Assembly (NCBI GenBank): GCA_021613535.1 | Contig: CP075497.1 | Span: 9,948,585 to 10,012,584 of the forward strand | Direction: 5' to 3' | Length of the DNA stretch: 64,000 nt | Source: Adineta vaga | Lineage: Eukaryota > Animalia > Rotifera | In this document: piece after piece, positions 5,501-52,144 of the stretch | Layout: each line of letters starts with the position of its first letter | Numbering within the stretch: the stretch's first letter is position 1 | Program-made: the position numbers and the translations under genes | Notes under the pieces: generated by a model | The model's input: only the letters and a program-made list of their open reading frames with translations | The model's database searches: none | Told to the model about the DNA's origin: nothing

Positions 5501-8500
5501 GGAATTATTTCGAAAATTGAATTAAAAAGTTAAAGTATCATATAGACTAGTTTGATTTACAAACGTTATATAAACACTTCAAGAAATCAAAGAACTGACT
5601 AAAACATGAAATAAAATGAACGATCGATGGCAATGATCACGAATATTTGAAGAGTTTTTTTTCTCTTTCTCTCAAGGATATATTCATTTCAAAAACAATT
5701 AATGTCATTGAGACAGTTGCGTGATGATAAGTAAAACGACGCCAAATAGATCAGAATGTTTTTGTGTGAATAAGAGAAAAGAAAACGGATGCAAGGTTAT
5801 TAAAACATACCATTTCTTGGACAACCATTACTAAATCTGTATTCTTCATTGTACGAATTGATTTGTTCTTTTGTTGATAATATATCTGTGTGATTGACAT
5901 TCATTGAATCATTGTTGTAACTTGAACTACAAATAAGAACTCATTTATATACTGTATAGATGATACATAAGGTTTCTGATCAGTTGTATAAAAAATTCAA
6001 TATTTACAAAAGAAATGAAAATGACTTTTTACCTAATAATATTATTTGGTATTGGTATTGATTCTGATTGTTTAGTCTATAGATTTTATAAAATCGAATA
6101 AATTTATAAACTTTTTCCATTTTCAATTAACTTACTTGTTCGGCAGTCTTTAATGTCATTGTTGTTAATCCGGAATGTTTATCTAATGTAGATGGTGAAG
6201 GTGGAGGAGGCCAGAAAGCTTGAACAGAATCGGATAATATAACGGGTTTTGTTTTTGTTATCGAGTCATTATTCGTTTCTGAAGATGATGATTTTAATTT
6301 CCAATCGATTAATGCAGATTGAACAACTTTCTTTTGATGTGTTTTATTGACGTTCGTATTAGTATTATTATTATTATTATTATTATTCGTAATAGAAAAT
6401 GTTGAACTTGACAAAGTTTCATCTTCAGCATTGAGTGGAATTCGACTTGACTGTTGATAATCATTATCATGAAGTTGAGATTCATATGATGGATAAGATG
6501 ATGATGAATTTGTACTAAGACTATTGATACTCACATTAGATATCGTTCGGTTTGCTGTTGAAATAATTTTCGGATTCTTTTTTGATGATGATGATACTGA
6601 TGACGATGATGATGAAGATGATAATGTATTTGTGTTATTGATAGGAGGATAAAGATAATAATGATATTGTGGAGGTGTTGTAATAATAAGTGTTGATGTT
6701 TGCATCAGTGTCGATTCATCTCCATTAGATAATGATTTTGGTGGTGAAAGAAAGAAGGGCTCTTTTTGTACTGTTTGATGATTGTGTAAAACATAATCAC
6801 ATTTCGGATCGGTTACCGGTCGAAAAAGAAGACCATTGTCTAATGAATCTCCTTCATCAGATTTAATAATTGTTGGAGAAGAATTCGTTGACATCGATAT
6901 AGAATTTGTAATACCATTACTGTTTGTACACAGTGGGATAGATGAATCTAAATAACGAACGATATTATAAAAAAAAGAAAAGAAAAGAAGAACAAAAAGA
7001 AAATGAAAGAAAGAAAATGAAAAAACCTTCGAATACACTCTACGTACACTTTCGAACATGTCATCATCGTCAACTCTTCTATTGACCTTCTTTCATACAC
7101 TTACCGATGTTAGAAGAACTAGTAGCACTGATATTCTTGTCCGTTGATGTTGAGACAAGAGACATCATTGATTGCCGTTCGCTAGTCTGATTTGTTGTGA
7201 CCTTGTCAAATGTATGAATATCTTCTTTTGATATTTCACAATGATTATTATTATCGTTTGAATATACAGGAAGAATGGATTCGACATCCGTACTGAGACG
7301 TTGATTTCCGTTTGTCCCTGTTGTTAATGTCGTCTGCTGTTTAGCTTTTCGTTGAGCACGTAGTTGGGTGGACGATGTACGTCGCAATTGTTTGTTTTCT
7401 TCGGTCGATATCGATGACTTGTTATTACTGCTATTCGAACGGCCAATAAGACTTAAAAATCCATTACTAAGTAATTTTTTTGCAGATGTTGAAGATGATG
7501 ATGATGATGATGAAGAGGAAGGTGATTGTTGTGAAATTTGTGGATTGATGATTGTATTGAGTGAAGATGTTTTAACAAGTAAACTATTCAACGGCATAGA
7601 TTTATCAACTGATAATGATTGTCGTTTTATTAAATCTAAAGGAGAAAAGAAGAAAAAAAATATTCGTCATTGAATGATTGAAAAAAAAAGTGAAGGAGAG
7701 GTCATTCGTACTTGTATTAGAATTGTTCGTATTATTCGATTCTTTTTTTTGCGAGACGTTGTTGCTGCCGTCATTGAAAGTGACTGTAGCAGTGGTAGTA
7801 GTGCAATGAAGGTGAGTAGCAGCAGTTGTTACTCGTCGACTAGTAGTGTGGTTTAGTTCGTCGACATTTTCTTTTTTCTCTTCTTCTTCTTCTTCTTCTT
7901 CTTCTTGTCGTCGGCTATCGTTGTTACTCTCTTCTTTCGAAAGCGGTGAGGGAGAGAGAGAAAAAGAACGAAGAATTGTACGTGTGGTAGTGGTCAATGG
8001 GTTAGCAGCGATTGTCCTCCTCGTTGTTTCATTTCTCTTATTTTCTCTCAATGTCTCGGCAAGACGTTGATCATCACATAGCTTCTTTTGTTCATCATTG
8101 TCACCATCGCCATTAACATTACCACCACTGGACAAAGGTGATGAAGACGCAATTGTAGCTGTTGGCCGATAATTATTACTACTGCTACTTGTTAAATTAG
8201 TACAACAGCAACGACTTTCCTTGACCGATATTGGTGATATTGAGCGAATGTTTCGAGGCAACTGACAATCAAAATGAACAGATTTTTTTATTCGATTGTT
8301 ATTATTTGTATTTGTTGGTGATTTTAAACAACCATTATTAGACACACTTGTCCTATATATATATATAGACATATATATGTATGCAGATGAGAACTTAAAT
8401 TGAATGAAAAAAAAATAACAACGAACTGACAATCGCTTGTTAGATAGTTGTTGATTAGTATTTCATTCAAAAAGAGAAAGAGAGAGACAAAGAGAAAAGT

Positions 8501-9923: not shown

Positions 9924-9961
9924 TTCTTTTTGTTCAATGTTCAAAACTGAAGAACAAAAAC
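9433..9961 (-). CDS. Putative first coding exon of the Shroom-like gene. Candidate ATG at 9921-9923 (MRFAEIKIDDKTILLDEKK...), then polyQ.
   Basis: Acceptor gtttttttttctctatctctag|G at 9961 suggests an upstream 5'UTR or spliced-leader acceptor. Donor TCG|gtatgtaataaaag at 9433. The ORF-track 'M' at 9944 is really a TTG. Confidence 0.4.
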
Positions 9962-12900
9962 CTAGAGATAGAGAAAAAAAAACTTTTGCTTTTTTTTTGT
10001 TTATTTACTATTAGTTGTTTAATATATTTCTGTTTTAGTTCGTCATCATCTTGTATATGTGTAATTAGCTCGAAACATATTGCTTTGTTGATAGATAAAC
10101 AAATAGAAAAGTAATTCAAGGAAACTAGTAAAACAATGTTTCAAGTACGATGAGAGAATGAAGAAGAGCAATAGCAATAATAGGACGATAAAAAATCAAT
10201 ATAATGTATATCTACCTGATTAATGGAAATTCATATGGTTATTAAGGAAAAGATTTTCCGATAAGAGATCTTTTCGATGTAATATGTAATTTAATAAAGA
10301 CAAAAAAAGACGATTAATATCGTCTTTTTTTAAATAATTTACAATAATAGATAGAAAAATATTGATCTCATTTAATAACGAGCAATATGGAAACAAGGTT
10401 TCGTAGACATCGTCTACACAAAATGAATAAATATATGTATCAATTATTTGGCTTTTTTTCTCGATGTTATTCTTCTGTAATGTTTGTCTCTCATCCTCTC
10501 TTCTGTTTTTTCTCGATTCTTTCTAACACGATACATATTCATTCTCATCTTCATCATTCTCATGATTGTCAGCTATGACAATGACACAAGTGATGACGTT
10601 CGTGTTATTCTATGCTTTATACAACATTATCAAAATAGATTCTCAGTGACGGACAATAAAGAAAAAAAAACTGAAAAGATGGAAAAAAAGTGAACAGTTG
10701 TGATAAAGATTATTCTGTTGTCTGAAATATGTTTCATTGAATCAGCATACTGATCTTCCTTCTATCAATTGTCGATAATCTATTATTCGTTCACTTCTGT
10801 TTAGTCCGAGATGAATGAAGCATAAGCACACTATCATTCTTTCCTTATGTTTAGTAGAATATGTATGAACAATTTATCATTGATTGTACTAGATTCTGAT
10901 CTACAAACAGAGTCTTATTACATCTTATGAATAGATTATGTGTGTAATGAACGAAACAATACACGTCGGTGTCTGTCTACTGGTCTGTCTAAGCCTTTTA
11001 TGCATCTTGAAAAGTATTCTCTCTGATTAAAATAAAAGTCTGAAATACTAATGTGAGCATGAAATTACTTTTCTTGGGATTCTTTTTTTTTTCGTCTTCT
11101 CTACTAAGTTGAAGTCGATATTAATGAAGGCCATATGAAGACATTCTATACTTGATATACGGAGATCGACAACTGGAGAGAAAATTCATTGCAGACAAAT
11201 AATTGTCAAGTACGTACTCATCATCATCATGTATACATAGAATAACTGGATCGTTTGTCATATTTTCTTTGAGACAACATTTGATCGGAATACTAACAGC
11301 AGCTGACCATTTTAGTATAATGAAAGAAAAAGAAAAAGAAAGAAAGAGCGTATGACACTCACATATACATGACATAATGTTCAATAGAGAAGAAGAAAAA
11401 AAAAGAAAAATGATGTAGAAAAAAGACGTGCAACATAAAGGACCCACTTTGCCTGTTTGTTCAACAGTATTAGCAACAAGCAATTGTCGTTTGTTGCTTA
11501 TGTCTCACCATTATGACCAAAAGAATGAGCGCTTAAATCGAACAGCAGTAATAACAATAAAAGAAGAAACAATCATTACATAAGTAAACTACTTGCTGGT
11601 CTGCTTGCCATTTTCTACTCGAACGGTTCTTATGTAGTGAAGGTGTCGAGGTCATCTGTACTGACTTACGAGTTACTCAATTTCGTCAGCATAATTCTTC
11701 TCCTTCTACATAATACACACATACTTATAAGTACGAACATAAACATTGATGAATAAAAAAAAACATATGATCGTTAACTAAGCCCAATGGGACGAGTCAT
11801 GTAGGAATACATGTATTGCGGAGGATGATGAAGATTTAAACCACATTCAAACAAAGATGATGCGACAGCATAGAAATAAATGCTCCCACCTTTTCTCTTA
11901 TATAATCTATTTATATATATATAAATGACAGGCCACACTTTTGTACTTACTAAAAAATGAGAGGCGATGTTTGCTATTGATATACCATTGTCTGAAATAT
12001 GTCTTTTCCTTACTAATAAGAAAATTAAGATACGTTCATAATCAACCTAAATCGATATCTGTGACATTCGATAAAGAAAAGGCAGTCGCAGACGACGTCT
12101 CCTATTTCGTCACAGGTAATAAGTTTGACTTGTTTTTTTTCTTTCTTCTTCTCGTTACTTATTGATTGCTTCTTCCTACTACGAAATAGATATTTTACTA
12201 GATTGCCTAGTTGATTTGAGAAGAATGTTGAAGGATGAACCGAACATTGGACAGGTAAATACTAAAGTATATGTGTACATACTTTTATACATAAATGTAT
12301 GTATACATATACATTTATGTATAGAAAAGAGTAGGTGATATGAATCAATTTAAAATACATTCATGTGTGTAGAAGATATACATGATTGATTAATGTAACT
12401 TGATTTGTGCATTGAAAAGCGGTGCTTAATAATGCTGATATTAGTATAGTTTCGTCATAGAAGCGTTACCATCAATCGCTTTTTCTTCTCGTTTTTTTTT
12501 GATGATTATCGTATCCGTCGAGGTGCACATATGTGAATGAACATATACAAGGCAATAATGGAGGTCACACGAGAAAAATTGTGCATCTTGAAAATGAAAA
12601 CGATAAAATAACTAATTTAATCCTTATCGATAGACAGTATTCAAATAGATCGCAGCCCTGAACTGCCAAAACACTTGAAAATTCATATCATGCCGTTTGT
12701 ATCTAAAGGCAATCATCGGTCCGTTTTCTTTTTCTTCTATTTGACAGTATATATATATCGTTAGGTTTATATTCAAGGTTTCGTTTTTTGACGATGACGA
12801 TTATTACTAACTATAATTATAATGATTAAAAAAAGAAAGAAAAACGGAAAAATAATATAAGATTCATTCATCAATATGATTTAGTAACATTGAAAAATCG

Positions 12901-15219
12901 ATAATAATGAATCAAGTGACCATGATTTCAAGGTATATCAAATTTCGAATAATATTCATTAACAAATAAGTTAGTCTCTTTTTTTCCCTCATAGTTATTA
13001 CTTGAAAAAAATCTCAAGGTGAAATAGAATAAGTTATGCTTTTATTAAATTTTCAGATCATGTTATCTTTTCGTAAATGATTGTAAGAAGGTTTCTATTA
13101 ATTATCTTTCATAGTAATCCATCTGATCGTTATGCTTTTTACACGTGCTACATTCATGCCAATCATTTGATTATCAATCTGGATCTCTACCAAAAAATTT
13201 GATAGATGTCAAGGAAAAAAGTTTGTATAAATCTTGTCTATACCAAAAACTCTTTTATTTGTCTGTTGATTTGTTTATATGTTACGATTGAATGAAATAT
13301 TAATAGTCTGAGACATATTAATGTTTGTAATGAAGGAAATCTGATTGAAAATTTTTTCAATAAGTCTTTCTAATGTGATATCATTAATAGGAAAAAGTCT
13401 CGATAGAAACCAGAAAAAAACAATTTTAATGTAATTGAGTTTATCTGTATTCGATCTATAAAGAAACTGGTTTTATTCAAGGAGAAAATCGAAATGCGCG
13501 GATGTAAAAACCTTATTTAGTAGTTCAAGGAGAAAACTGAACATAGAAGAAAAAGCTAACTATATGTATTTTGAATGATAACGAAGTGTAATAAATCAAA
13601 GAACAAATTTGAAACTGAAGGAAAGATTGAATCAAGTCTAATTTTTTTTATACATTAAAATATTTACAAAAAAACAACCAATACCATGCACACATACTGC
13701 TTAATGAGGCAAATCCTAAGTGTTTCGAAAGATCTTTCACACAATGTTTTCATATGTACGGATCGATATATCAAATTTTCAGTAAAAACATCGTTTATTT
13801 ACTATCGAAATTCATGAATTATTGTTTGTTTTTTCTTTCTATTTACAAGTCAAACATGATTTAATTGGAGGTCAAGCTTAGATTGTGTATTGATTTTAAA
13901 GACAATTCAAATTGCAAAACTTTAAAAGTTGGAACAATCTTACTAACCATACATGTATGATTTTCTAATCCATCAGTAAGCAAGAATTTTCGTGACTTCC
14001 AAGTAGATGAGAAAAGTATGTTTACAGATTGTTTATTTATTCAAAGTCATTGATCATAGAGAGTTATCAAATCAATAAAGATAAAGATGATCATGCATTT
14101 AAGAACGATTTAAGCTTTTCAAATTGTGTATACCTATATTTTTATTCCGACTGAAAATAAATACAGTTGACTGATAATTCGTGATAAAACAACGAACATT
14201 TCATAGTATAAATTGTGATTTTTTTACATATGCAAAAGAATATTATTCTTGAATATCCGAGTTTATTCATAATTTTTACATTTTGGTTATCATGAAGTTT
14301 CATAGAAGAAAAACGAAAATAAGCAGAGAATAGTGTTATGCTCTCGCATATCAAATAGAAATACTACAACTTAAAAGCAATCTTAATGAATTCTTATTAG
14401 TTTTAATTACATACGAATAATGTAACCTTGGGAGATCTAATTTTAAGATAGACCAAAACTCACTTTTGCCTCCCTCCTCACAATTCATTAAAGGAAAGAA
14501 TTGAGTAATAAAATATTTATATTATCATCTATCATACATGCAAATCTTAATTGGAAAATATCAAATTACACAAGTTGTTTTCATCTATTTTTTCAACACT
14601 TCATTTTCCCGTGCAAATTTTGCGCTTATTTCTTACAAGATAAAATGTTAAAAATATCAGGTGAATTTGTTATGTAGTTGATCCAATCATAAATATAGTC
14701 AACAATTTTAGAAATCAATACCACATATGTCCAAAAGATATTTTGCTTTTGCTTGGTTCTAAGATGATGATGATTATTATGCTATCATTGGGAAAAAAAT
14801 AGAAGTAATAACATAAAGAGAAACACCTGTTTAAGTATTGATGCTTATTCTCAATAAGAATATAGAGAAAAACAATCAATTTATTCAACAAGTAGGTCAG
14901 TTAACAGCTTGTAATTTGACAAACAATCTCAGACTAGAATAATAGCAGACTAAAGAATGCTAGTGATGAGTCAGCGAGTACTTTACCTGATATACGAAAT
15001 CATACAAACATGATTTCGCAATGCAAAACAACATGACACGTCATTATATCAACAATAATATGTAAGTTATGTTGGAAATCTGTCGATATGATGCAGACAT
15101 ATAAATAAAGAGACGAGTTTTTCGACGATATAAATGAAAATAAGATAAGGAAAAAACCTTAGATTTCTTTTAAAATTATAACGAGCATCATTACATCAAC
15201 TTTACATTATGTATGAAAT

Positions 15220-15339
15220 GCTTACGGCCATACCACGTTGAATACACCAGTTCTCGTCCGATCACTGAAGTTAAGCAACGTCGGGCTCGGTTAGTACTTG
15301 GATGGGTGACCGCCTGGGAATACCGAGTGTCGTAAGCTT
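15220..15339 (+). rRNA. 5S ribosomal RNA gene, single copy.
   Basis: GCTTACGGCCATACCACGTTGAATACACCAGTTCTCGTCCGATCACTGAAGTTAAGCAACGTCGGGCTCGGTTAGTACTTGGATGGGTGACCGCCTGGGAATACCGAGTGTCGTAAGC is a canonical metazoan 5S sequence. Box A-like (AAGTTAAGCAAC), box C (TGGATGGGTGACCGCC) and the terminal helix pairing GCTTACG/CGTAAGC are all present. Confidence 0.92.
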
Positions 15340-23792: not shown

Positions 23793-26237
23793 CGTGAATT
23801 TATCGTTAATTCAAAAGATTTTTATTAAATAAATATTCAAAAAAAACAAGTTCAATAAATAAAATTTACTAAATAAAAAACAAACAAACAATTGATATGA
23901 ATTCTATTGGATTGATTAACGCAAATAAAAAGTAAATTGAGATACTCTCTAATTAATAGAAATGATTTCAATTCGAAAAAATCATATAGAAGTATCTTGG
24001 AAATAAAATATTACAAAAAAACCGAGTTTTATTCATGTTATACTACCAGCGACATCTATTCTTTTGAGGAATTCGATATAATTTTTATCCAAAAGTAAGA
24101 TTCATCTATCAAATGTAAATGCACGAAACATGTTTCTTTCTATAATAGAAATATATTCTCAAAGAAAACTAGAACACAAATCTGATTCGAACATACTCGA
24201 GACATTCTAGAAAGTTCTTTAGACAAATAAACAAACATGTTTACAAGAAAATTGATCGAAATAATATTGATCAACATTAAATAACCTTGCAGTATCTATT
24301 CACATGACTGATTTGCCTTACAGCTAAACATTATTCTATATAAATAAATATCTTTGTTAGTAGAAAAATACTTCTTAGTACTGCCAAGTTCAATAGTACA
24401 CGATCAATCAACAGGTTTATATTACACAGTAAGATTATGTATCAATATCGATAGGAATTCTTTTTTTCTTTTTTTTTCTATGAATATATTTGATGCTTTA
24501 ACAGTGTCTGTCGTTTGATGATCTTTTCACAGCTTTTCACATTGTTCGTTTGTCTTTTTCCTTAAGGATGTATACGAGAATAGTTGTATACTTGAATAAA
24601 AAAAACTAATTTCGAACAAACACATACTATTCCTTTGTGTCTCTCGCACGATAAAGTAAAACTCTCATGAAAATAACTACTATTAATATATATCTTTTCT
24701 CAGTAACTCATGTCTCTCTATGTAAAATATAGAAACGATAATCAGAGTATGTATTTTTTTGTTTGTATTTTATTTAGAGAGAAAAAAAATACAAAAGCAA
24801 AAAGAATAATTCAATCAGTCGAACTGATCATAAATATAATCTATTTGTTCATTTTTACTGTGTTAGATAGTGCAGCTGACTGCATATACACTGAAAAAAA
24901 AGAACAATAGAAAAAAAAGAGGCAATTCGCTATACAACAAACAAAAGAAGAAGAACACAGAAATTCGTGTCCTCTTGTTTTGTTAACACGGAAATAGTCT
25001 GTATATGATACAACGATGCGTAAAGTCTATATATCTTGGTGAATTCATTGCTTATCATGATCTCATTTACCACAATGAGAACAATGTCGTCTATTTAACG
25101 AATCAAATTGATCATCAATCGAACTATCATTCCTTAACTCCGAGGAGAAATCAAGTCGTGAAGTATTCAACGTTCGTTTTGCTTTCGCTGTTTTCGTTGT
25201 TTGAGTTGATGGAGATGAGACCATAATCCCATTTGTTAGTTTATGTATCGTTCTTCCACGTTTTTTACAACTAATGAAAAAGAAGACAATAATGAGAGTA
25301 TTGAAAAAATGATGTCAACATACCAGGTTGAATCAATCCCGGCATTAATATATATCGAACCATTTAGATCACTGATCTCGGACAAATGTCGATCTAATGG
25401 TTGTGCTGGTGTTTTTCGAATCTTTTGTCGACGGACAATAGTGCTGCTCATAGTGAAAAAGAGAAGTTATAGAAGAAAATTAAAAATGACAAATAGTTGT
25501 ACACAAGAAAATAACGTTACAGATCTTGTATCTGTGAATGACTGTGTATTGGAGTAGGAAGAGTAGGCGAAGAAGAGAACACGTTCTGACGACGATTTAT
25601 TCTCGATCTGAAAGTAACGCGCACATATATATACTTGTTCAGATGTCTGCCGTTCTCTTTCCTATGAAAAGAACGCAAGAGAGAAAGAGAAACGAGAGAA
25701 AATGAGAGATACATAGAAAAAATAGCGTGCCGCTCAAACAATCATTGTCTCACGCTAATGTAATTTCTTTCTCTTCATCGTTCAACACTTTGTCTATCAT
25801 CATATATTACCTGTACGGTTCTTCATATATCATCATCGATAGTTATTCATTAAGTTATGGTCAACTAACAAGTTCTCATCAATTGATTTGTTCTGCATCA
25901 AGATTTTATTTTTCTTCCGAAAAAAAAACATTTCTTTCATAGATTACAATCAAACGAAGAGAGAAAAAGAGAAATGTAGAATAGAGAAGAACGAAAGAAA
26001 GGAAGAAAAAAAAACGAGCGAATATCCGTTTGTCCTCGAAGTACGATGTTAGTCTTAATAAAGAAAATTTAGAGACAGAAGACGAAATCGAATAGACATT
26101 CAATTATTAATATGTTTTTGTTTTTTGAGAACAATTTCTGTTCTATATACATGATAAGCATAAAAATAGTTTAAGAGAATGTGAAAAAGAAAAAAACATG
26201 ATTGCACGTAAATGGTAAAAAGAAGTTTTGAAAATGC

Positions 26238-26919
26238 TTAATCGAAAGATATCAATTGTGGTTCAGGTTTTTCTTCATTAATAACAGGATTCGATTGATG
26301 CTCATACTCATGCTGACGTTGTTGTTGTTGCTGTTGCTGTGGCGGTTGTTGTTGTTGAGTATAAGACATATTCACATTATTAGGAATTGGCATTGAGCCA
26401 GGAGGAAGATTGTAATTGTTATCTACGATATAAAAATAGAAGCATGAGTCAAACGAAACAATCCTTTTGTCAATAGATAGTTATTTCATTTATGACTGAA
26501 ATAGCTCTTATAGATACGTGTTCGATATTTTTTTCTTGTCATTCGTGATATAAATTTTTTTAAAGATAAAAATGAATACCTCCATTAGCTCCCATAGTAT
26601 ATGGCGTAGGCACATGAGGTAATAAGTTTGCATCTGTTTTCGGTGGATACATCATCATTGGTGGATAATGAGTTGGAGGTAAAGATGTTTGTGTCGGAAA
26701 TTGTTGTCCGAATGTATATTGATTTGTTGGATCCGCTAATTGTTGTGTTGGTAAAGTAGTATATGGTGGTTGATAGGGAATATTTTGTTGAGGTAATTGA
26801 CTGTAATCATATGAGACCATTGACTATAAGAATAAATAATTAGTTATTTATAATAAATAAATTCTTATGATTAGGACCTTAAGAAAGCAAATGATTAGTG
26901 TAAGTAATAGATAAGTCCG

Positions 26920-26950
<31 letters not shown>

Positions 26951-29729
26951 TACTTCTTTAGTTATGACTTTCGATATTGTTGGTTTTCATTCTATAGCTG
27001 ATTAGTTTTTTACAGAAAGTCTGCACTTTATCTATTGATCCGATAGAAAAAGTTATTTTCTTCACTCAAGGAAAAAAGGAGCCAGTGATTTTATTATTCA
27101 ATGAATAGTGATAATATTGTTTTTGTTTGTGAAAGAAAACTTCTTACCAATTGAGGATTTTGTGAAAGTTGTTCACGTGCTAATGTCATTTGTCGTTGTT
27201 GTTCGAGACGAGTTTTCATTTCAATTTCTTGTTGTGCTAAACGTTGAAGATGAATTTGACGTTGATATTCAAGATATTCCTATATGAGAAAGAAAATGAT
27301 TTGTTTTCTTTTTCTAAAAATAAACAAGAAAAACAAATCAACAAACTTGTTTCTTTTGTCTCATAAAATCAAGTTTTTGTGCCAATTGAATTTGCCGTTG
27401 TCGATCACGTTCTAAAGCTTCTCGTTGTTTTCTTTCATAATGGTCTGTACGTAAAGCATTTAATGCTTCACGTGCATCTTTTAATTGATTTAGTTTATCT
27501 TGTAAATTCTCAAAATATCCTTAAAAAGAACGAAAATAAAACTTCCTTTTTTATTCAAAATTGAAAATGATCTGAAAGAATTTACCTCGTTTATCTTCTA
27601 ACAATTGCATATAACGGTGTAATTCAGGATGAAGATGTTGAAGCATAACAAAAACTGATTGAACAGCTGTGTCTGTTGTTACATTTCTACTACGTTGTTG
27701 ATTACTTAACATTCGAAATTTAAAATTATTAATATGATCAGTAACAAGCGTAGTAAATTGATCGATTTCACTATCAGTGATGAATTTATTCAATTCATCC
27801 TGAAAAAATATCATCAAACATGTTCGAAATACAGAAAAGAACAGTTCGATTTATTTACCGGTAAAGATGCTGTTAGTTCAATTCCATGCACGTGTCCATG
27901 TCCATTAGAAACGTTCGTCGGAATTGGTTGTTCCTGTTGTTGTTCTCGACGTCCTCGTTCGATATATTTTGTTAATTCCGAATATTCATTACTAGTTTCA
28001 GGAGCACTCTAGAGATGAATAGATTTTACGGATTTGAATCGATATTGTAATTCAATAAGGAATTGAATAATTACCGAAGTATTATTATTTACTGGAGCTG
28101 ATAGAAAACTTGACATAGCATATTTTTGTGTTAACATTTTCTTCTGTCTTTCTTTTTCTTCTGCTTCACTTTGTGACATCGCTAATGCCAATTGAAAAGA
28201 TTCTTCTTCATCAATTTCTGCTTGACTTTTTGTCTAAACATAACACACAATAATGAAATGTTTGCAATTCTATTCTTAAATAATATTTCTCTTACTTGAC
28301 TTGGCGGCGGAGCAGATGATGACATTGTTCTTACTGTTGAAACTGGTTTGACAATTGGATTTGAGCTTAATGGTACTCTAAATTTAATTGGTCTATTGAA
28401 AAAAATCAAGTAAATCTCTTTCATAGTTACCCCGATGTTAATTTTTCATAACATGCATCACAAACACGAACTTCGCGATCGAAACCATATTTTGGAACAG
28501 CACATTGTTTTGAAGAGCCTAGAAAGATTTTTGAGAGATAAATCGTAAACTGTTTACTTATTTTTATTTACATTTATCGCAAAAGATATCGCCACATGCT
28601 CGACAATGATGCTATAAGAAATAATCAAAATGAAACATGAAGAAATGTTCAATAAAAAATTTTACTTTTCGAATAAATGTAGTAAATGTTTGTCGACAAC
28701 GAAAACATTCTTTATCATCTCGCCATTCAGGTGCTATATCACTGTTTTCAAACATAGCTTCACTTTCTTTCAATGGTGGAAAACGATAATTTTCAATTTT
28801 CATTAAATTATATGTGTCAGTAAAAATCTTATGTTGCTGACCTTTGAATAAAAATAAAAACTATGGAATGACCTTTTGTTTTCAAGTGTAAAACATACCA
28901 AGACCATGTGACCAACATTGAAGTAATTCGAGAACTTTATCACGAATCACATCTGGACCATTCTTTCAAACAAAACAAAGATAAATGTATTACTTATCTA
29001 CGTATTTAATTAATAATAATAATAATATACTTTTGCTAATTCACGTAATGCATCGACCATATCTCGTTGTGCAAGTTCTTTATGAACTGATCCTCCACAA
29101 TTTTTAACTATCGATTCCAAACACTGAAAAAAAAAGCGAAAAAAGATATTCAAGTTCAATTAATCTTATCATTTCATGCTTGAAAGTCTTAATTGTGATG
29201 AAGTTATTCTAGACTACTGAGAAATAATTGCAACTAGTACAAGATAATGTAAAACACCTGTTGACTGTTATTATATTACTCGAATGATTAGTCACTAAAT
29301 TCTATCTGATTTCATGAAAACACAAACTAACATGATACACTATAAATAGACTATAATTAGATTTGTTACAATATTAATTTAACATTTACTGTAATTGATA
29401 GATCTATTTTTTTACTTTCATCAACTGTATATGTGAATGTTTGTGACAGAATGGTTTCGAAGAACTTACCTGAAGTGCACTAAGAATAACATGGGCATTT
29501 TCATGGCCAAATTTTTTCTTAATTGTTTGAATGGCATATTTAGCTCTAGAAATGAAATGTGTATTGTGAAGGAAAATCAAATCGAATATTCTTACGGAAC
29601 TTCTTGTGATTTAACGATATCGCATAATTGAAGAACTGATTCCCAATCAGGTTCAAGTAACAATGGACTTGTTGCTTTATCTAATAATTTATCAAAAATC
29701 TTCGTATTTGATAAACTAAATAAACTCAT
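26238..29729 (-). CDS. HGS: Hepatocyte growth factor-regulated tyrosine kinase substrate (Hrs/HGS) homolog. ESCRT-0 subunit. Multi-exon.
   Basis: N-terminal VHS (MSLFSLSNTKIFDKLLDKATSPLLLEPDWESVLQLCDIVKSQE...). FYVE finger (WRDDKECFRCRQTF...RKHHCRACGDIFCDKC...CAVPKYGFDREVRVCDACY). UIM (EEESFQLALAMSQSEAEEKER). Coiled-coil exons. Gln/Pro/Tyr-rich tail ending ...EEKPEPQLISFD*, the clathrin-box motif. Confidence 0.8.
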
Positions 29730-29788
29730 GTTAATCTAAAAAGAATAAAAGAAAAAAGTATAATAAACTCAAATGAAATTCCATGAAT
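29730..29788 (-). promoter_or_regulatory. 59-nt spacer between the LCMT1 stop and the Hrs ATG. It contains a polypyrimidine tract plus AG 6 nt before the ATG, a candidate SL trans-splice acceptor or intercistronic region.
   Basis: Minus strand: TAA-attcatggaatttcatttgagtttattatacttttttcttttattctttttag-attaac-ATG. Confidence 0.4.
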
Positions 29789-30769
29789 TTATTCAAATGT
29801 TATTCTATCTAATCCAAGATTTTGTTCATCTCGATATGCCCATGAAAAGCAATAATGTTCAAATAATTGTTCCAATAATTCCTTTTCATCTAGACCTCCA
29901 TCAATATGTTCAATTCGTTGTTTTTCATTATGATTTAAATAATTTTTATAATATTCATTCAATGTAATACATTGTGCAGATGTAAAATTAGCATTAATAT
30001 ATCTTTGACATTGACTAGTTTTGTTTTCACATGAATCCATTCCTACTAAATGACATGAACGTTGTTTTAAATTTTCAATCATAATCTGTCCGAATCGATC
30101 ATTCATATTGATTTGTTCGAAATTTACAAATAAACAAGATTGAGCAAATGTTTGTGTTAAATATTTTAATAAATTCGATGAATGTTCAGAAGACATATAG
30201 ATTAAAACACATTCACTAATAAATAATGTTGGTAGTGTAAAATCAAGAATTTGATGTTCAGAAAGATATTTCAATTGATGATCTAATTGAGTTAAATCAC
30301 GGAGATCAGCGGGTAAGATTGTATATGAAGATGAATGAAAACCACATGGAATTTTCAATGATTGATTTTCTTGTGGAAATTTCTTTTGAAGAAATGGTAA
30401 ACGACGAATTTTTGTCGATTTTATCTCTGTTAATTCTTCAAAATCTACGTCAACAAAATGTTTAAATTTAAGATTTTCATTATCTAATAAATAGAATATT
30501 GTTGTATCAAAACCACATCCAAGATTGATAATTTGACATTGATTATTTGTTAATTTAATAAATTTTTCAATAAGATAACGAAGTCCATGTACACGAACAT
30601 AATAACCAAGACTTATTTCTGGTGTTCGACGTTCATGATGTGATGAACCGGTCAATATTTTTAAATATGGATCTTTCCAATATCCACGTTCAATTGCATA
30701 TAATTTACATTGACATGCATCGTTATTTGTTTCGATTATATTACTATTATCAACTGCTGTTATATTCAT
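29789..30769 (-). CDS. LCMT1: Leucine carboxyl methyltransferase 1 (PP2A C-subunit methyltransferase). Single exon, 326 aa.
   Basis: DACQCKLYAIERGYWKDPYLK...RTPEISLGYYVRVHGLRYLIEKFIK...CQIINLGCGFDTTIFYL...ISECVLIYM gives the LCMT fold with the SAM-binding GCGFDT motif. Confidence 0.8.
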   Translation of the reverse strand: MNITAVDNSNIIETNNDACQCKLYAIERGYWKDPYLKILTGSSHHERRTPEISLGYYVRVHGLRYLIEKFIKLTNNQCQIINLGCGFDTTIFYLLDNENLKFKHFVDVDFEELTEIKSTKIRRLPFLQKKFPQENQSLKIPCGFHSSSYTILPADLRDLTQLDHQLKYLSEHQILDFTLPTLFISECVLIYMSSEHSSNLLKYLTQTFAQSCLFVNFEQINMNDRFGQIMIENLKQRSCHLVGMDSCENKTSQCQRYINANFTSAQCITLNEYYKNYLNHNEKQRIEHIDGGLDEKELLEQLFEHYCFSWAYRDEQNLGLDRITFE

Positions 30770-32817
30770 ATTACGAAACAGCTAGAAACTTAAGATAAGA
30801 AAAAGAAAGTATACTACTAATGACGTTAGACGAAATAGATTACTCACATTGTTTAGATTAATATGAGTAATATTGTTACGTTTAAAAAAGTTACTTTTTC
30901 GTCCGGTCAAACAGAGTTATCCGATTCGAACATGTTTCATCTGATGAGATATAGTTAGTGACATCTGTAGATTTTTCTTTGAATACTGAAGACGTACAAA
31001 AATGAAAAATTATTTTATTTCTTTTTTATTTTAAATAGAAATTTATTGGAATAAATAGATGAGAAAATTTTTTATACATTTTCTTAATTATCCTTCAGAT
31101 GACGTTGATTTACGTTGATACAATGCGTGATCGTTGATGGATTATGATTGAAAAACGTATTAATCTGAGAAATATTACATGAGTGAACAGACCAGATTTC
31201 TCCCTTTGAAACTTTTAAAATACATCGTTCTTCTTCAATGAAATAATAATATATCGATTTATAGAAAACAATAAACACGTTATTTTCAACTGAAAAAGAG
31301 TTTGTCATTTAATTGAGATGCACTCGAGTCAAAGTTTATAATACAACATTGAACACTACATCAAAACAATAGAAATAATGATCACTTGAAATAGAAAGAC
31401 GTTTCCGATTTATTTCCATATAATGAAAATTATTTCTTCTGATACAATCATTTCTTGTTTCCTTTCAACATCATGGATGAGAGTATAGAGATAAAGGTGT
31501 GGGTGAATGTAATTAGCGAGAAATCCTCAAAATTCTAAGTACGATCATGCATACAATTAGAATATGAAGATTCGTATTCTATTTAACACTATTATTAATC
31601 AAAATATATCAGATGAAATAAAGATTCATCGACGACATTGTTAAATTCCTCATTTTTCTCCTTACTATAGGAAAATATGAGAAAAATTATGCTTGATACT
31701 TGATCTCTCGATATTACTCGTTTTGACAGATCAAATTTAACTTTTTTTTGTAATTAGAAATACATCATTGCGTAATATAGCATCAAAATATCTGGATCGA
31801 ATTACTCTAATCATGTTTCCAAAGAAAGTTGATAGTTTCCTATAATAACATCTAATAGATATCTATGACGTATTAGAATATCACCACCAAACTATTTTGA
31901 GAAAAATTTTCATCATTCTATTTCGAAGAATATTTATTTGACAAAATCATCAATCTTGAGAAATTTTAATGTTCAGTTAGTTTCATATGTTATAACTTCT
32001 GAACAAATTCAATCATCGAAATTTAGCATTGACATTTGATACACATAAAAAGAGAATGGTAGGTATTTTAAGAACATCTTTTCATAATCTCAGAATTCAT
32101 CAAAAGGATTTATGGTTTCAAAGACATGCATTTCTACGGAAAAAATAGAAGAGTTTGAAATTATTTCTTTTAAAAATTAATAACCCTTTTGAATCTTCGG
32201 ATATTTTCATCAGATAAAGTTGTATAGTAGAAAAACAATCAATGCAGCAGCAACTACTACTTAATTATTTTACTCGGCAAGATTCTTTGTTCGAAATTCA
32301 TTTGAAACATCATATAATATTTAATATTGATAATGGGTATGATATCTTTAGAATCGCAACTTCTATTAAAGAAGCCACGGCACAATGTTCTCTTTACATT
32401 GATACTTTCTGCGCAATTACTTTTGAAAGATTCTTCAGTGTCCTCTCATTTTATTGACGTCATAGAAACATGAGAAGTTCGCTTAGTTTATACTTTCATC
32501 TCAAGAGATTTAATTATACTCAACAATAAAATACAAGCATCGGTTATACTTCTATCATGTGAATGTCACACAAAAAGAAGAAGTACTTTCACTAAAAGAT
32601 TTGATTTGTTTTCTTTTGAATAGTTAAAAAATCTTTTATCACGTATTTGTTTTCATCAAACAAGAGAATACTTGATGGTACCGGAGAGAAGGAATTAATT
32701 TGTACCCTCAAATGTAGTTCTTAGTGAGTTTGTCATTGAGAAAAAAAAAGTGTTTTTTAGGTGAAGGAATTTTATTCTTGGTCTTAACTACATCAAAACG
32801 CAATGATGGCGTTGGTG

Positions 32818-33011: not shown

Positions 33012-33701
33012 TTATTTCTTGCGACGTCGACCATACTTGAAAATGTACGGTACTTGTTGTTCTTCCATAACTTTTTGTAAAAGCATAGTAAGCCAAGCGC
33101 GCGCAAATGGATTTGTTTCAACCAAAACCTTGAGTGAAGGTGACAGACGTGTTGATTCACTCAATTGACTAAGATTGACAACGCTGTTTGGATCAGATGG
33201 ATCGACTAAAGCTGCTGCGGCGACAGCTGAATTCAAATTGAAATCTGTCGGTAATGTAGGTGGTGCACTGATTGACGGCGAACTGGCTCGTTTTTGTTGT
33301 TTATCTCCTTTAGATTGTTGATATTTTTGTAATAATAATAAGAACTTTCTAGATAATGATTTTGATGGCAATTGCTGAAGATAAAAATCAAATGGCACAT
33401 TGGATTCATGTAAAGACGAACTTAAAGATGATGATGAATCTTGGTAACGATCTTTCATGGTTGAGAATTCGTTGCTTTCGCCTGTCAACATTTCAGAAGT
33501 GTCACCACCTAAATCATAATCGATACTCGGGACGGGATGTTGATGTAAGGGCCTGAGTGGTGAAGATAAATCAGCAGATGGATGATTATGGGTAGAATGA
33601 TGGGTTGAAGATAATTTTGGGAGACCATGTACTGATGTCGTACATAAAAACAATGTTGAAATAAATGTAACAACGAACACGGCCAGAATATCAAATAACA
33701 T
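33012..33701 (-). CDS. Secreted protein with N-terminal signal peptide and several dibasic sites. Possible prohormone-like precursor. Single exon, 229 aa.
   Basis: MLFDILAVFVVTFISTLFLCTTSVHG is a hydrophobic signal peptide. KR/RRRKK sites and the C-terminus ...VPYIFKYGRRRKK* read as Gly plus basic residues (a possible amidation signal). Acceptor ttctttatttcag lies 40 nt upstream of the ATG. Confidence 0.45.
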   Translation of the reverse strand: MLFDILAVFVVTFISTLFLCTTSVHGLPKLSSTHHSTHNHPSADLSSPLRPLHQHPVPSIDYDLGGDTSEMLTGESNEFSTMKDRYQDSSSSLSSSLHESNVPFDFYLQQLPSKSLSRKFLLLLQKYQQSKGDKQQKRASSPSISAPPTLPTDFNLNSAVAAAALVDPSDPNSVVNLSQLSESTRLSPSLKVLVETNPFARAWLTMLLQKVMEEQQVPYIFKYGRRRKK

Positions 33702-36700
33702 GTTTGAAGAAAGGTTGAGGAGGTTAGCAAGTTGTCGGATGTTCTGAAATAAAGAAGAAGAATTTCAAAAAATAAATCTTTCCTCTTTCATATAGTATAT
33801 CAATACATAAATAATATATAGATGTATTTCTTCAGAAAATCATTGCTCAAATGAAGACGTAAGTTACGAGCAAATATACTTTAGATAATGGCGTCCTCAA
33901 GTCATTTCTATTTTTTTTCTAATAAAAAGAGTGACAAGAACATCATATAAAGATCGATGATGATGTTTCGACAAGTTTCTACAAAAGAAGAAGGATTGCA
34001 ACATGAAACTAGTCACCGTTGTTATTTTTTTTATATTTCTTGCATAGCTTTCTTTGTTACACTATTATAATTCTCAGGAGATATCGAGCACAAATGTATG
34101 TATAGATGTCTGCGTATGTAAAAGAGCATGAAAATCAGCAGGAGACTGTTCGTTTGACGTTTGTATGTGACATTAATTGCAATTCTTTTTGTCTTTCTCT
34201 TCTGGTTTTTTTCTCTTCTTTTCGCCTTTCCAATTTATCTCTAATACTATCTTCTATTGAAATCAACTGACAAAAACGAAGAGCATGGCAAACAATTAAC
34301 TTTTATCTCAAGCAATCGCTTACATTTCTATGTTCTATTCATCAATCTCGACGAACTCATATAATATTAAAGAAATCTGAAATCGAATGACATTATGAAA
34401 TCAAATTAGGTGACAAATGAATAAAAAAAACATGCAATCTTAACAATAACATGAAAAAGAAATCAATGATACTAATAGATCTTGTCATTCAACAGTGATG
34501 ACATTAAGATCTCATGTCAAATATCCAACGACAAATCATGGCTTATATTCTATATCTCAATCAAAAAACTTTGCCTTTCTCTTTCTATAAAAGTCAGAAA
34601 ACAAGATTCTAATCTAATAATATTTATTGTATACTCTCAATCTCGAAAATGGCGAAGTAAGGATTAAAGAAAATAAATATACAATTTCCTTCATCTATTT
34701 CACCTACGTAAAAAAAAAGAATTCTTCATCAATAAATGTAGACTTAACGATCGAGTCTAAACAAAAGCTTAATACTAAAGAAAAACTTGCGTCTATATTT
34801 ACCTAACAAACGAACTCATTTACGTGAACAGATTTTCTATCAGGTGAAAAATCCACGTAAATATACAACTAAAGTCTTGTAAATGTTCAATTCTACTCTC
34901 TCACTATGATCATAATTTCAAAAAGAAAACACGAGAAGTCTAACAATAAGTTATTCTGATTTCATAGGAATTAGTAAGGATTACCTTGAAAGAATATTAT
35001 GCTAAAGTATAAGATTTTTTAATATCATGCATACAGTTATATACTATTGTGTTAATAAAACATTTATTGTGATTAACCATACTTTTCATTCATCTGTAGT
35101 ATAATAGAAAAGGCAAAAAAAAAAGGATGATGATGAGATGCATAGAAATGGAACGATTGATTGATTGATTGGTTTTTCCGGAAAGGAAGTAGTAGAGAAG
35201 AAAGAAAGTGTGATATACACAACTCGAAAAGAACTTAGCTGACTCACACGTAACAGTTCAATGTCATAAAATTAATACAGATAGTCAACGCATTAGTTGC
35301 CGATGACGCACAACTTCATAAGGAGAAAAAAAAGAACGCGAATAAATAGATGAAGTTTTGAATTATTCATCGAATGTTTCACAATAATAATGGCAGAGAG
35401 AATTTTAGGTCAATATCCATTTTTTTTTACTTATTAAACAATGACGTAAACACAGAAAAAAGATCCATTGTTTAATATTCATCTACATGTTTAAATTGGT
35501 GAGAAATCTAAATGAAGACGTTTCCTCTACTTATATCATCCTCTTCACTAAAAAACAATCTAACAACTTAGTTTTTCAATAACATTTTGATACTTGCTTT
35601 TTTGAAGATTAACATATTCTAATCAATGTAGAGACGTACTCAATGAAAGTAGGAGAAAAGCAGTGGAATAATTAGCTTTTCTGTTTAGTATCGATGGTAG
35701 AATGGGAGTACTATGAATAATTATTTCCTTCCCACACAATACAAATCTGTCTACATATATATTCATCGATATGATTAAGAAAAAGAAAACCAGTCGATCA
35801 AAGATACGCCCACCTGCTTTTGATATAAAAGAACTGGAATCTGTCAGTTTCTTTTTAATTATTAAAACGAATCGAAGACAATCAAGAATACATAATAGAT
35901 ATAAAGAAAACTAGTATCAATGATCAATACATCATTCATATTTTGAGATGATATGTCATTGAAATTAGAATAAAAAGAAGAAGATAAGAGAAGACTATCG
36001 AAATATTTCAATGAGTAAAAGTCAAAATAGTTCGGAGTAGAAAAAAAATCAAAAGAAAAGACTGACATGTCAACAGTATTATTATCTATGTTTGATTAAA
36101 ATCAAATTCATTTATATCCATCCTAATGAAGAATATATAGTAGGAAATCTAAATTCGAAATTCTTCTCTATATTTCTCTCGTATCAGAACCATGAATTAA
36201 CTTTCTTTTTTTTCACTTCCGTTTCCTCTTTAGTGAAATCTACTGTTAATCTATTCACTTATAATTTCCTGAAGATCTGGAATGAAAAAAAAGATGACAA
36301 AAGGTTTCTTTTCGATAAAAATTTGCTTTCAAAAGGATAAGGAAACTTAATTAAATGTGATATTACTCTACTTTCTACTCACATCATTTTTGACAAACGG
36401 AAAATATGTATTCTTACTTATTTACATATAAATTGTTATCGTATCGTCTTTGTATTTATAAAAAAAATCAATTGAATTTCTAATAAAACGAACAATTACA
36501 ATATCCTTTAAAAGGATTCTTCTTTATGAAAAAAGATTCAAGTGTAAAATTCCTATCCTATCAACGAAATCAAGATATACAACTAAGAGATTATCAAAAC
36601 CTTCGAGCGAGAAAAGGATAAAAATTCTTTTTTTATATTTTCTCATTTGAAATGTCTACTAACCTACGCGTTTTTCTTTAGAACACACGAAGTTCAACTG

Positions 36701-38565: not shown

Positions 38566-52144
<13,579 letters not shown>

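Follow-up and report, generated by a model that had tools for sequence, protein, structure and literature searches.

In a 64,000-nt stretch of the genome of the bdelloid rotifer Adineta vaga (GenBank assembly GCA_021613535.1, contig CP075497.1, positions 9,948,585 to 10,012,584; hereafter the window), the gene for a leucine carboxyl methyltransferase, LCMT1, is followed on the same strand and at very close range by Hrs (HGS). We propose, with a probability of about 0.55, that the two genes form a conserved bdelloid operon whose transcript would be resolved by the 23-nt rotifer spliced leader (SL). The broader claim that LCMT1 and Hrs make up a single transcription unit of some kind, which takes in the operon, a leader exon shared by cis-splicing and a stable dicistronic mRNA, is probable. 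Co-transcription of the two genes is likely, judging from the RNA-like contigs of one relative and the lack of space for a promoter; use of the SL at the acceptor preceding Hrs is plausible, and a poly(A) site at LCMT1 is presumably used.

The LCMT1-Hrs junction across bdelloids

All features of LCMT1 and Hrs lie on the minus strand. The 326-aa LCMT1 protein matches the Pfam family LCM (4e-19) and shares 100% identity with A. vaga I4U23_030396, and Hrs corresponds to the adjacent locus tag, I4U23_030395 (P0111). Translations of the Hrs exons match Pfam VHS and Hrs_helical, exon 1 (ATG at 29729) matching VHS, and the FYVE domain of P0111 is taken from a precomputed domain list. The Hrs N-terminus, MSLFSLSNTKIFDKLL..., lines up with the starts of the other retrieved rotifer Hrs proteins, including that of Brachionus, and the C-terminal end of LCMT1 coincides with the ends of other bdelloid LCMT1 proteins. 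Because both termini agree with homologues, we regard the LCMT1 end and the Hrs start as genuine. The initial annotation had described a head-to-tail pair with 59 nt between stop codon and ATG, and this description holds (spacer 29788..29730): on the minus strand the junction reads ...TTTGAA TAA ATTCATGGAATTTCATTTGAGTTTATTATACTTTTTTCTTTTATTCTTTTTAG ATTAAC ATG, with the LCMT1 stop TAA at 29791-29789.

The spacer ends in a very strong candidate splice acceptor, placed by the same annotation 6 nt before the Hrs ATG with an exon start at 29735. We scored it with a 23-position 3' splice-site matrix built on 42 real Hrs introns from A. vaga, Adineta ricciae and Rotaria magnacalcarata (median length 57.5 nt, longest 716 nt). 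The AG at 29737-29736 has exactly the predicted position and scores 13.2, against a leave-one-out mean of 7.0 (standard deviation 3.4) for the cis introns, and ranks among the top 4 of the 5,712 AGs on both strands of the window (top 0.1%). Equivalents are present in 15 of 15 bdelloid lineages, with scores of 6.1-14.0 that are comparable to those of genuine intron acceptors. They lie 3-10 nt from the ATG (33 nt in one lineage), and AG/AT, the slash marking the predicted splice point here and below, is invariant. Based on this pattern, we infer that the conserved AG upstream of Hrs functions as a splice acceptor.

The initial annotation had also suggested checking the synteny of the pair. The same order, the same strand and a spacer of 21-63 nt are found in 15 distinct bdelloid lineages, A. 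vaga and 14 others. The junctions come from NCBI assemblies (spacers of 36 nt in A. ricciae and 35 nt in R. magnacalcarata), from Logan contigs (47 nt in L001, a bdelloid with 53% GC; 31 nt in L022; 38 nt in L024) and from JGI and ENA environmental contigs retrieved in a protein-guided scan. Wherever a contig includes the start of the main Hrs copy, an LCMT1 stop codon precedes it by 21-63 nt on the same strand. The spacer alignment shows two conserved islands only, one being the LCMT1 end with its AATAAA and the other the pyrimidine tract with AG/AT, a short A-rich ATWAAY and the ATG; the middle varies between lineages in both length and sequence. It is mainly this retention of tight spacing in 15 lineages that makes the junction more than chance. 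An accidental origin, whether the genes are close by chance in a compact genome or the annotation or assembly is in error, has in its favor that T-runs followed by AG are abundant in AT-rich sequence. Such an origin is effectively refuted by the comparative data: 15 lineages, assembled independently, show the arrangement, full-length homologues agree with both protein termini, and the Hrs acceptor has the extreme rank given above. One apparent overlap of LCMT1 with Hrs, in the lineage of P0024 and P0236 (L022:1505-1579), was rejected as a gene-calling artefact in which TGA is read as Trp, the real spacer being 31 nt; the two LCMT1 gene calls (350 and 355 aa) extend falsely into the Hrs exon.

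The AATAAA that overlaps the LCMT1 stop codon, a feature absent from the initial annotation, is the only AATAAA or ATTAAA from 29830 to 29700. AATAAA overlaps or lies just 5' of the stop in 12 of the 15 tight-spacer lineages, at a distance of 14-52 nt from the acceptor AG (14-16 nt in L006 and L008, 52 nt in A. vaga). With the putative poly(A) signal this close to the acceptor, a true intercistronic region is minimal or absent, and trans-splicing would have to use nearly the same RNA as the formation of the LCMT1 3' end. Since the signal overlaps the stop, the 3' untranslated region (UTR) of LCMT1 would be just ~10-30 nt long. Two of the three lineages without a hexamer end LCMT1 in TGA in place of TAA.

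Outgroups delimit the arrangement. In Didymodactylos carnosus, which we take to be an early-branching bdelloid, LCMT1 and Hrs are adjacent on the same strand with 994 nt from the stop to the Hrs ATG (MGLFSVSNTKLFDKLL), and a GTAAGT donor lies ~80 nt 5' of an acceptor at -34, which suggests that Hrs there has its own small leader exon and intron. In the monogonont Brachionus plicatilis there is no LCM gene within 8 kb 5' of Hrs, and LCMT1 is on another contig. This comparison indicates that the gene order is bdelloid-specific and that extreme compaction is found in all sampled lineages but Didymodactylos. The annotated Didymodactylos Hrs start (7847 in L025:7847-7970, CAJNOQ010002107.1) is probably wrong: the conserved N-terminus MGLFSVSNTKLFDKLL begins at the ATG at 7967, after a GTAAGT...CAG intron. 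The leader exon predicted for Hrs there occupies about 7800-7852 and would be spliced to 7933. Bdelloids also have a second, diverged Hrs copy, ~55-65% identical (P0118, P0122, P0123; L009:1-400), which begins MFDKLL and lacks the MSLFS.SNTK residues. The acceptor of this paralogue in L009, at -11, is weaker, and the 160 nt present upstream contain no LCMT1.

Routes to an Hrs mRNA

Possible signs of a transcript across both genes come from two contigs of one species obtained from independent samples, L002 (Logan SRR5248463, 2,965 nt) and L005 (JGI 3300002345, 2,242 nt); this evidence concerns a relative of A. vaga. The contigs reach from LCMT1 codon ~8 past the Hrs stop, and in them LCMT1 is followed, after a 32-nt spacer (cgtttttttcttctgtttttcttcttcag/att), by an Hrs open reading frame (ORF) of 651 codons with no interruption. 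The other loci, from 14 lineages, all have an intron after Hrs codon 45 or earlier, and in L024, the closest sampled relative of L002 (LCMT1 identity 73%), introns lie exactly at the clean gaps of L002. Because L024 has introns where L002 has none, the two contigs are best read as cis-spliced RNA across both genes: most likely, they represent a bicistronic RNA from which the Hrs introns have been removed and in which the LCMT1-Hrs junction is unprocessed, either as a precursor or by read-through. The species has no poly(A) hexamer between the genes, which fits more read-through. The A-run at the end of L002 was rejected as a poly(A) tail: L005 continues beyond it, which shows the run to be encoded.

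These contigs could also be taken for a stable dicistronic mature mRNA, from which Hrs would be translated by re-initiation or internal entry, with the pyrimidine tract acting in translation. A crossed junction with all Hrs introns gone and the missing hexamer in the same species both speak for such an mRNA. The conserved element is, however, a full 3' splice site, a pyrimidine tract with invariant AG/AT that scores like real acceptors, and 12 of 15 lineages have AATAAA at the LCMT1 stop. Ribosomes moreover re-initiate inefficiently once they have translated an ORF of 326 codons, and we judge a stable dicistronic mRNA very improbable.

The likely start of the transcription unit is marked by a conserved non-coding block of ~100 nt 5' of LCMT1, which reads ATTACTCAT-ATTATCTAAAC-AAY/GTGAGTAAT...CTAACGTCATT...GTTCTTATCTATAG/...TTTTATAAT-ATG and which we interpret as a leader exon followed by a 5'UTR intron. 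The exon ends at 30848 in ...CTAAACAAT (longer form ...ATCTAAACAAT) and is followed by a strong donor, GTGAGT, at 30847. The donor, CTAACGTCATT and GTTCTTATCTATAG are conserved between lineages, and the length of the predicted intron fits the bdelloid norm set by the median of the 42 Hrs introns. We think that the block probably includes or abuts the transcription start. It is far better conserved than the surrounding non-coding DNA (also in L003:4869-4986, L004:4870-4987, L013, L018, L021 and L022), and contains ACGTCATT within the intron and TTACTCAT ~20 nt 5' of the donor, which may be promoter or transcription-start elements or splicing signals. Two further candidates in this region were discarded. 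The inverted repeat at the leader donor (ATTACTCAT/GTGAGTAAT) as a hairpin has 6 invariant pairs, no covariation and -2 kcal/mol. TTCTTATCT as a distinct promoter motif has 3 sites in the window against 1.65 expected, one of them an ordinary intron acceptor: the TTCTTATCT..AG of the LCMT1 5'UTR intron is also found at the intron acceptor at 40835.

No conserved block comparable to the LCMT1 leader was found upstream of Hrs. Within LCMT1, synonymous-site conservation is flat, at 0.66-0.70 in the last 40 codons against 0.62 overall (range 0.52-0.74), with no rise over the last 40-120 codons. Flat conservation gives no hint of a conserved promoter within LCMT1, and we rejected an embedded promoter in its 3' coding region on this evidence, which is weak. 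These data bear on whether LCMT1 and Hrs are independent, overlapping units, in which case an Hrs promoter and start site would lie in the 3' coding sequence of LCMT1, the upstream part of the transcript would be removed by SL trans-splicing, and the tight spacing would reflect genome compaction. Bdelloid genomes are compact, internal promoters occur in the 'hybrid' operons of Caenorhabditis elegans, and acceptor-like sites also lie 5' of other starts that have long upstream intergenic regions, for example at 33744 and at the L009 Hrs paralogue. Three observations argue the other way, namely the lack of any synonymous rise next to the obvious block upstream of LCMT1, the contigs that run from LCMT1 codon ~8 to past the Hrs stop, and the retention of a 21-63 nt spacer in 15 lineages, which independent units do not need. 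We consider independence of the two genes quite unlikely.

The leader exon and strong donor upstream of LCMT1 also open a second possible use of the Hrs acceptor, cis-splicing over the intron-less LCMT1, and this is the main rival of the operon. One promoter and one leader exon would serve both genes: the donor at 30847 would be joined either to the acceptor at 30789, giving the LCMT1 mRNA, or ~1.1 kb further on to 29736, giving an Hrs mRNA (...ATCTAAACAAT/ATTAACATGAG, 30848 joined to 29735) with LCMT1 skipped inside a long first intron and no SL required. There is a precedent in the cholinergic locus, where VAChT is nested in the first ChAT intron and the two share a 5' non-coding exon. The likeness extends to an upstream non-coding leader exon with a donor, an intron-less gene and then a gene with a strong acceptor before its first coding exon; the cholinergic genes are functionally coupled, however, whereas LCMT1 and Hrs are not known to be, and the splice from the leader to Hrs is hypothetical. 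Consistent with a gene nested in an intron, LCMT1 is intron-less over its coding sequence in all bdelloid loci looked at (an uninterrupted ORF in 12 loci), as against 13-15 introns in Hrs. The leader exon is conserved, and the Hrs acceptor is very strong and of cis type. Moreover, Hrs in Didymodactylos seems to own a short leader exon and intron; were the former lost, the closest donor for the acceptor would be that of the LCMT1 leader. On the other side, co-transcriptional splicing should take out the 59-nt leader intron well ahead of the synthesis of the Hrs acceptor, and its early loss would deprive that acceptor of a donor, which is classically the situation in which SL trans-splicing acts. 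A typical bdelloid intron measures ~57 nt, with 716 nt the longest of the 42, and SL trans-splicing is very common in bdelloids, of whose mRNAs 50-65% reportedly carry the SL. A junction of the leader with Hrs was not encountered either, in data that could not have revealed it. Taken together, a shared leader strikes us as unlikely.

The sequence of events in the operon that we favor would be as follows. Transcription would start at the conserved promoter or leader ~80-100 nt 5' of the LCMT1 ATG, and the 59-nt 5'UTR intron would then be removed. The LCMT1 mRNA would be cleaved and polyadenylated a few tens of nt after the AAUAAA that overlaps its stop. For the downstream RNA, a 5' end would be supplied, most probably by the trans-spliced 23-nt SL, at the acceptor that precedes the Hrs AUG by 6 nt. 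The predicted Hrs mRNA consists of SL, AUUAAC and AUG, with the junction ...CTTACCAAGAG/ATTAACATGAGTTT at 29735. The transcription unit would end 3' of Hrs, whose stop is followed by a first AATAAA at 25910. Because the Hrs acceptor lacks a donor of its own and rotifers trans-splice an SL, the most likely route to an Hrs mRNA is trans-splicing of that SL at 29735.

Several observations weigh against the operon. A literature search for the library types (RNA or DNA) of SRR5248463, SRR10663368 and 3300002345 returned none, and L002 and L005 might represent an intron-less genomic copy; a De Bruijn assembly could also fuse two mRNAs that overlap by at least 30 nt, that of Hrs and that of LCMT1 with a long 3'UTR. 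The leader donor upstream of LCMT1 permits the cis-splicing alternative. In L002, L022 and L024, no recognisable poly(A) hexamer (AATAAA, ATTAAA or common variants) is present from 40 nt 5' of the LCMT1 stop to the acceptor, leaving 3'-end formation unexplained in these lineages. The SL itself was sought in two ways: JGI contigs gave 0 matches to an SL 3' end joined within 0-12 nt to the Hrs start, and among the 22 scored candidates of a protein search none had an SL prefix, that is, a translation of SL and 5'UTR fused to the Hrs N-terminus. Both SL results are weak, because those data hold one RNA-like Hrs contig only and assemblers usually trim short SL tips. The trans-spliced polycistron suggested by the initial annotation is partly supported, as one probable transcription unit whose downstream gene would be served by an acceptor in place of a promoter of its own, and the SL joined at 29735 was not seen in JGI contigs or predicted proteins.

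The hexamer-less lineages invite a bolder version of the operon. Bdelloids as a group might have SL-resolved, spacer-less operons in which stop codon, poly(A) signal, branch point and SL acceptor fit within 21-63 nt, and the lineages represented by L002, L022 and L024 might form the LCMT1 3' end by cleavage coupled to trans-splicing at a shared pyrimidine tract. Didymodactylos, with its 994 nt and apparent Hrs leader, may then be a pre-operon state. Trypanosomes couple 3'-end cleavage to trans-splicing, and we know of no animal that does so in their manner. We regard this version as a speculation with little chance of being right.

Features of the locus and the wider window

The coordinates of the LCMT1-Hrs features, together with a complete 5S rRNA gene in the window, are collected below.

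Table 1. Features of the LCMT1-Hrs locus and the 5S rRNA gene, in window positions unless a contig is named.
Feature	Position	Strand	Remarks
Leader exon, conserved 3' part, ATTACTCATATTAATCTAAACAAT	30871..30848	-	Non-coding; kept in 8-9 lineages with unalignable LCMT1-Hrs spacers
LCMT1 5'UTR intron	30847..30789	-	Predicted from sequence; 59 nt; donor GTGAGTAAT, branch-like CTAAC, polypyrimidine CTTATCTTAAG acceptor
LCMT1 5'UTR segment after leader intron, TTTCTAGCTGTTTCGTAAT	30788..30770	-	19 nt
LCMT1 coding sequence	30769..29789	-	Single exon, 326 codons and stop TAA
AATAAA overlapping LCMT1 stop	29793..29788	-	Putative polyadenylation signal
LCMT1-Hrs spacer	29788..29730	-	59 nt, LCMT1 stop to Hrs ATG
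Polypyrimidine tract and AG, cttttttcttttattctttttAG	29758..29736	-	Candidate SL (or leader-exon) 3' splice acceptor for Hrs
Hrs 5'UTR after splicing (predicted), ATTAAC	29735..29730	-	6 nt; ATWAAY consensus seen in most lineages
Hrs/HGS coding region	29729..26238	-	15 exons, 669 aa; P0111 threaded, exact spliced match
Hrs exons	29729-29596, 29545-29470, 29123-29031, 28962-28899, 28841-28666, 28611-28572, 28518-28431, 28377-28296, 28233-28075, 28008-27859, 27799-27586, 27519-27347, 27279-27148, 26823-26580, 26422-26238	-	
First AATAAA 3' of Hrs stop	25910..25905	-	Likely end of transcription unit (predicted)
Hexamer-less junctions	L002:944-990, L022:1493-1538, L024:1144-1196		Scanned for poly(A) hexamers
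5S rRNA gene, complete	15220-15338	+	Rfam RF00001, 115.8 bits; amid protein-coding genes

The 5S rRNA gene is the sole Rfam match in the window. Several SL-using taxa have their SL RNA genes linked to 5S genes; the window contains no SL sequence, with up to 3 mismatches allowed, and hence no SL RNA gene.

The initial annotation had pointed to two more acceptor-like sites. The one near 33741 is there, with the G of its AG at 33744 (minus strand), a score of 11.9 and a position 42 nt 5' of the ATG at 33701. It lies just 5' of a 229-aa secreted-protein ORF (33701..33012) and may receive the SL or else end a 5'UTR intron in an ordinary monocistronic gene. At the second, proposed to precede a Shroom-like gene at 9961, an acceptor-like site does exist at 9962 (minus strand, score 8.2).

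Another pair of close neighbors appeared in the relatives. A. ricciae encodes BcrAD_BadFG and F-box/LRR domains in separate genes on one strand, 324 nt apart (L003:13032-14431 and 14755-15279); the single annotated R. magnacalcarata gene that has both (616 aa, L004:15201-16060) may result from fusing such a tight pair into one model.

The pair beside known trans-spliced operons

Bdelloids trans-splice a 23-nt SL, GGCTTATTACAACTTACCAAGAG (PMC3795323 Table 1, citing Pouchkina-Stantcheva & Tunnacliffe 2005), the single SL form known for rotifers in a table that lists their operons as 'ND' (PMC2481426). Operons are given as 'not reported' for rotifers elsewhere (PMC7986045), and our full-text literature searches found no report of any. 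A 2025 paper loosely names rotifers among lineages with trans-splicing and operons, citing general sources only (PMC12460157).

The closest match in geometry is to the SL1-type operons of C. elegans and the operons of Ciona intestinalis that lack an intercistronic region (PMC12582326). There the upstream poly(A) signal lies nearly on the downstream acceptor, as the putative one does in LCMT1-Hrs (14-52 nt), the genes share a strand, the organism has one SL type, and the partners are functionally unrelated housekeeping genes. LCMT1-Hrs differs in belonging to Rotifera, in having an SL that is only predicted at the site, in a poly(A) signal that overlaps the stop, and in three lineages without a hexamer. 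With the SL2-type operons of C. elegans it would share a polycistronic precursor resolved by 3'-end formation and trans-splicing. That type, however, needs an intercistronic region of ~100 nt and a specialised SL2, and LCMT1-Hrs has neither, given its hexamer-to-AG distances and the one rotifer SL.

Candidate operons of flatworms (Schistosoma, cestodes) have been defined by same-strand spacing of at most 300 nt together with SL reads (PMC12582326). LCMT1-Hrs resembles these polycistrons in its short same-strand spacing, in a strong acceptor before the downstream ATG and, if L002 and L005 are RNA, in chimeric or bicistronic contigs in transcript assemblies. Schistosoma mansoni pairs differ in a median intercistronic distance of 99 nt beyond annotated UTRs (PMC12582326). 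Flatworm SLs are 36-37 nt long and end in ATG, unlike the 23-nt rotifer SL, and few flatworm operons are conserved between species, whereas the LCMT1-Hrs pair is kept in all 15 tight-spacer lineages. The likeness to flatworm and nematode operons drawn by the initial annotation was a guess at the taxon, the organism being a bdelloid rotifer with its own 23-nt SL.

Chaetognaths are the nearest phylum (Gnathifera) with documented operons, which hold 18% of their genes (PMC12460157). They too combine SL trans-splicing with tightly spaced same-strand genes (criterion <250 bp) and have no operon-specific SL, although their SL sequences are unrelated to that of rotifers. Because no synteny between chaetognaths and rotifers was found (PMC12460157), the operon origin would presumably be independent. 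At 59 nt, and 21-63 nt in the other lineages, LCMT1-Hrs falls within the limit of 250-300 nt or less used in published operon screens.

SL trans-splicing in rotifers has been known since 2005, and LCMT1-Hrs provides a concrete and deeply conserved operon candidate. If confirmed, a rotifer operon would be of a kind already known in a phylum where operons are undocumented, accompanied by a deep record of conservation and a candidate ancestral state, and would add one more phylum in which SL trans-splicing is accompanied by operons. It would also be a warning, in the annotation of bdelloid genomes, that gene models may be fused or begin at the wrong place. Should the two genes instead share a leader exon, a housekeeping pair so joined would likewise be an unusual gene arrangement. 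As an operon, LCMT1-Hrs would show how small an intercistronic region can get, and the ~1-kb and ~40-nt spacer states within one class would offer material for testing how operons originate.

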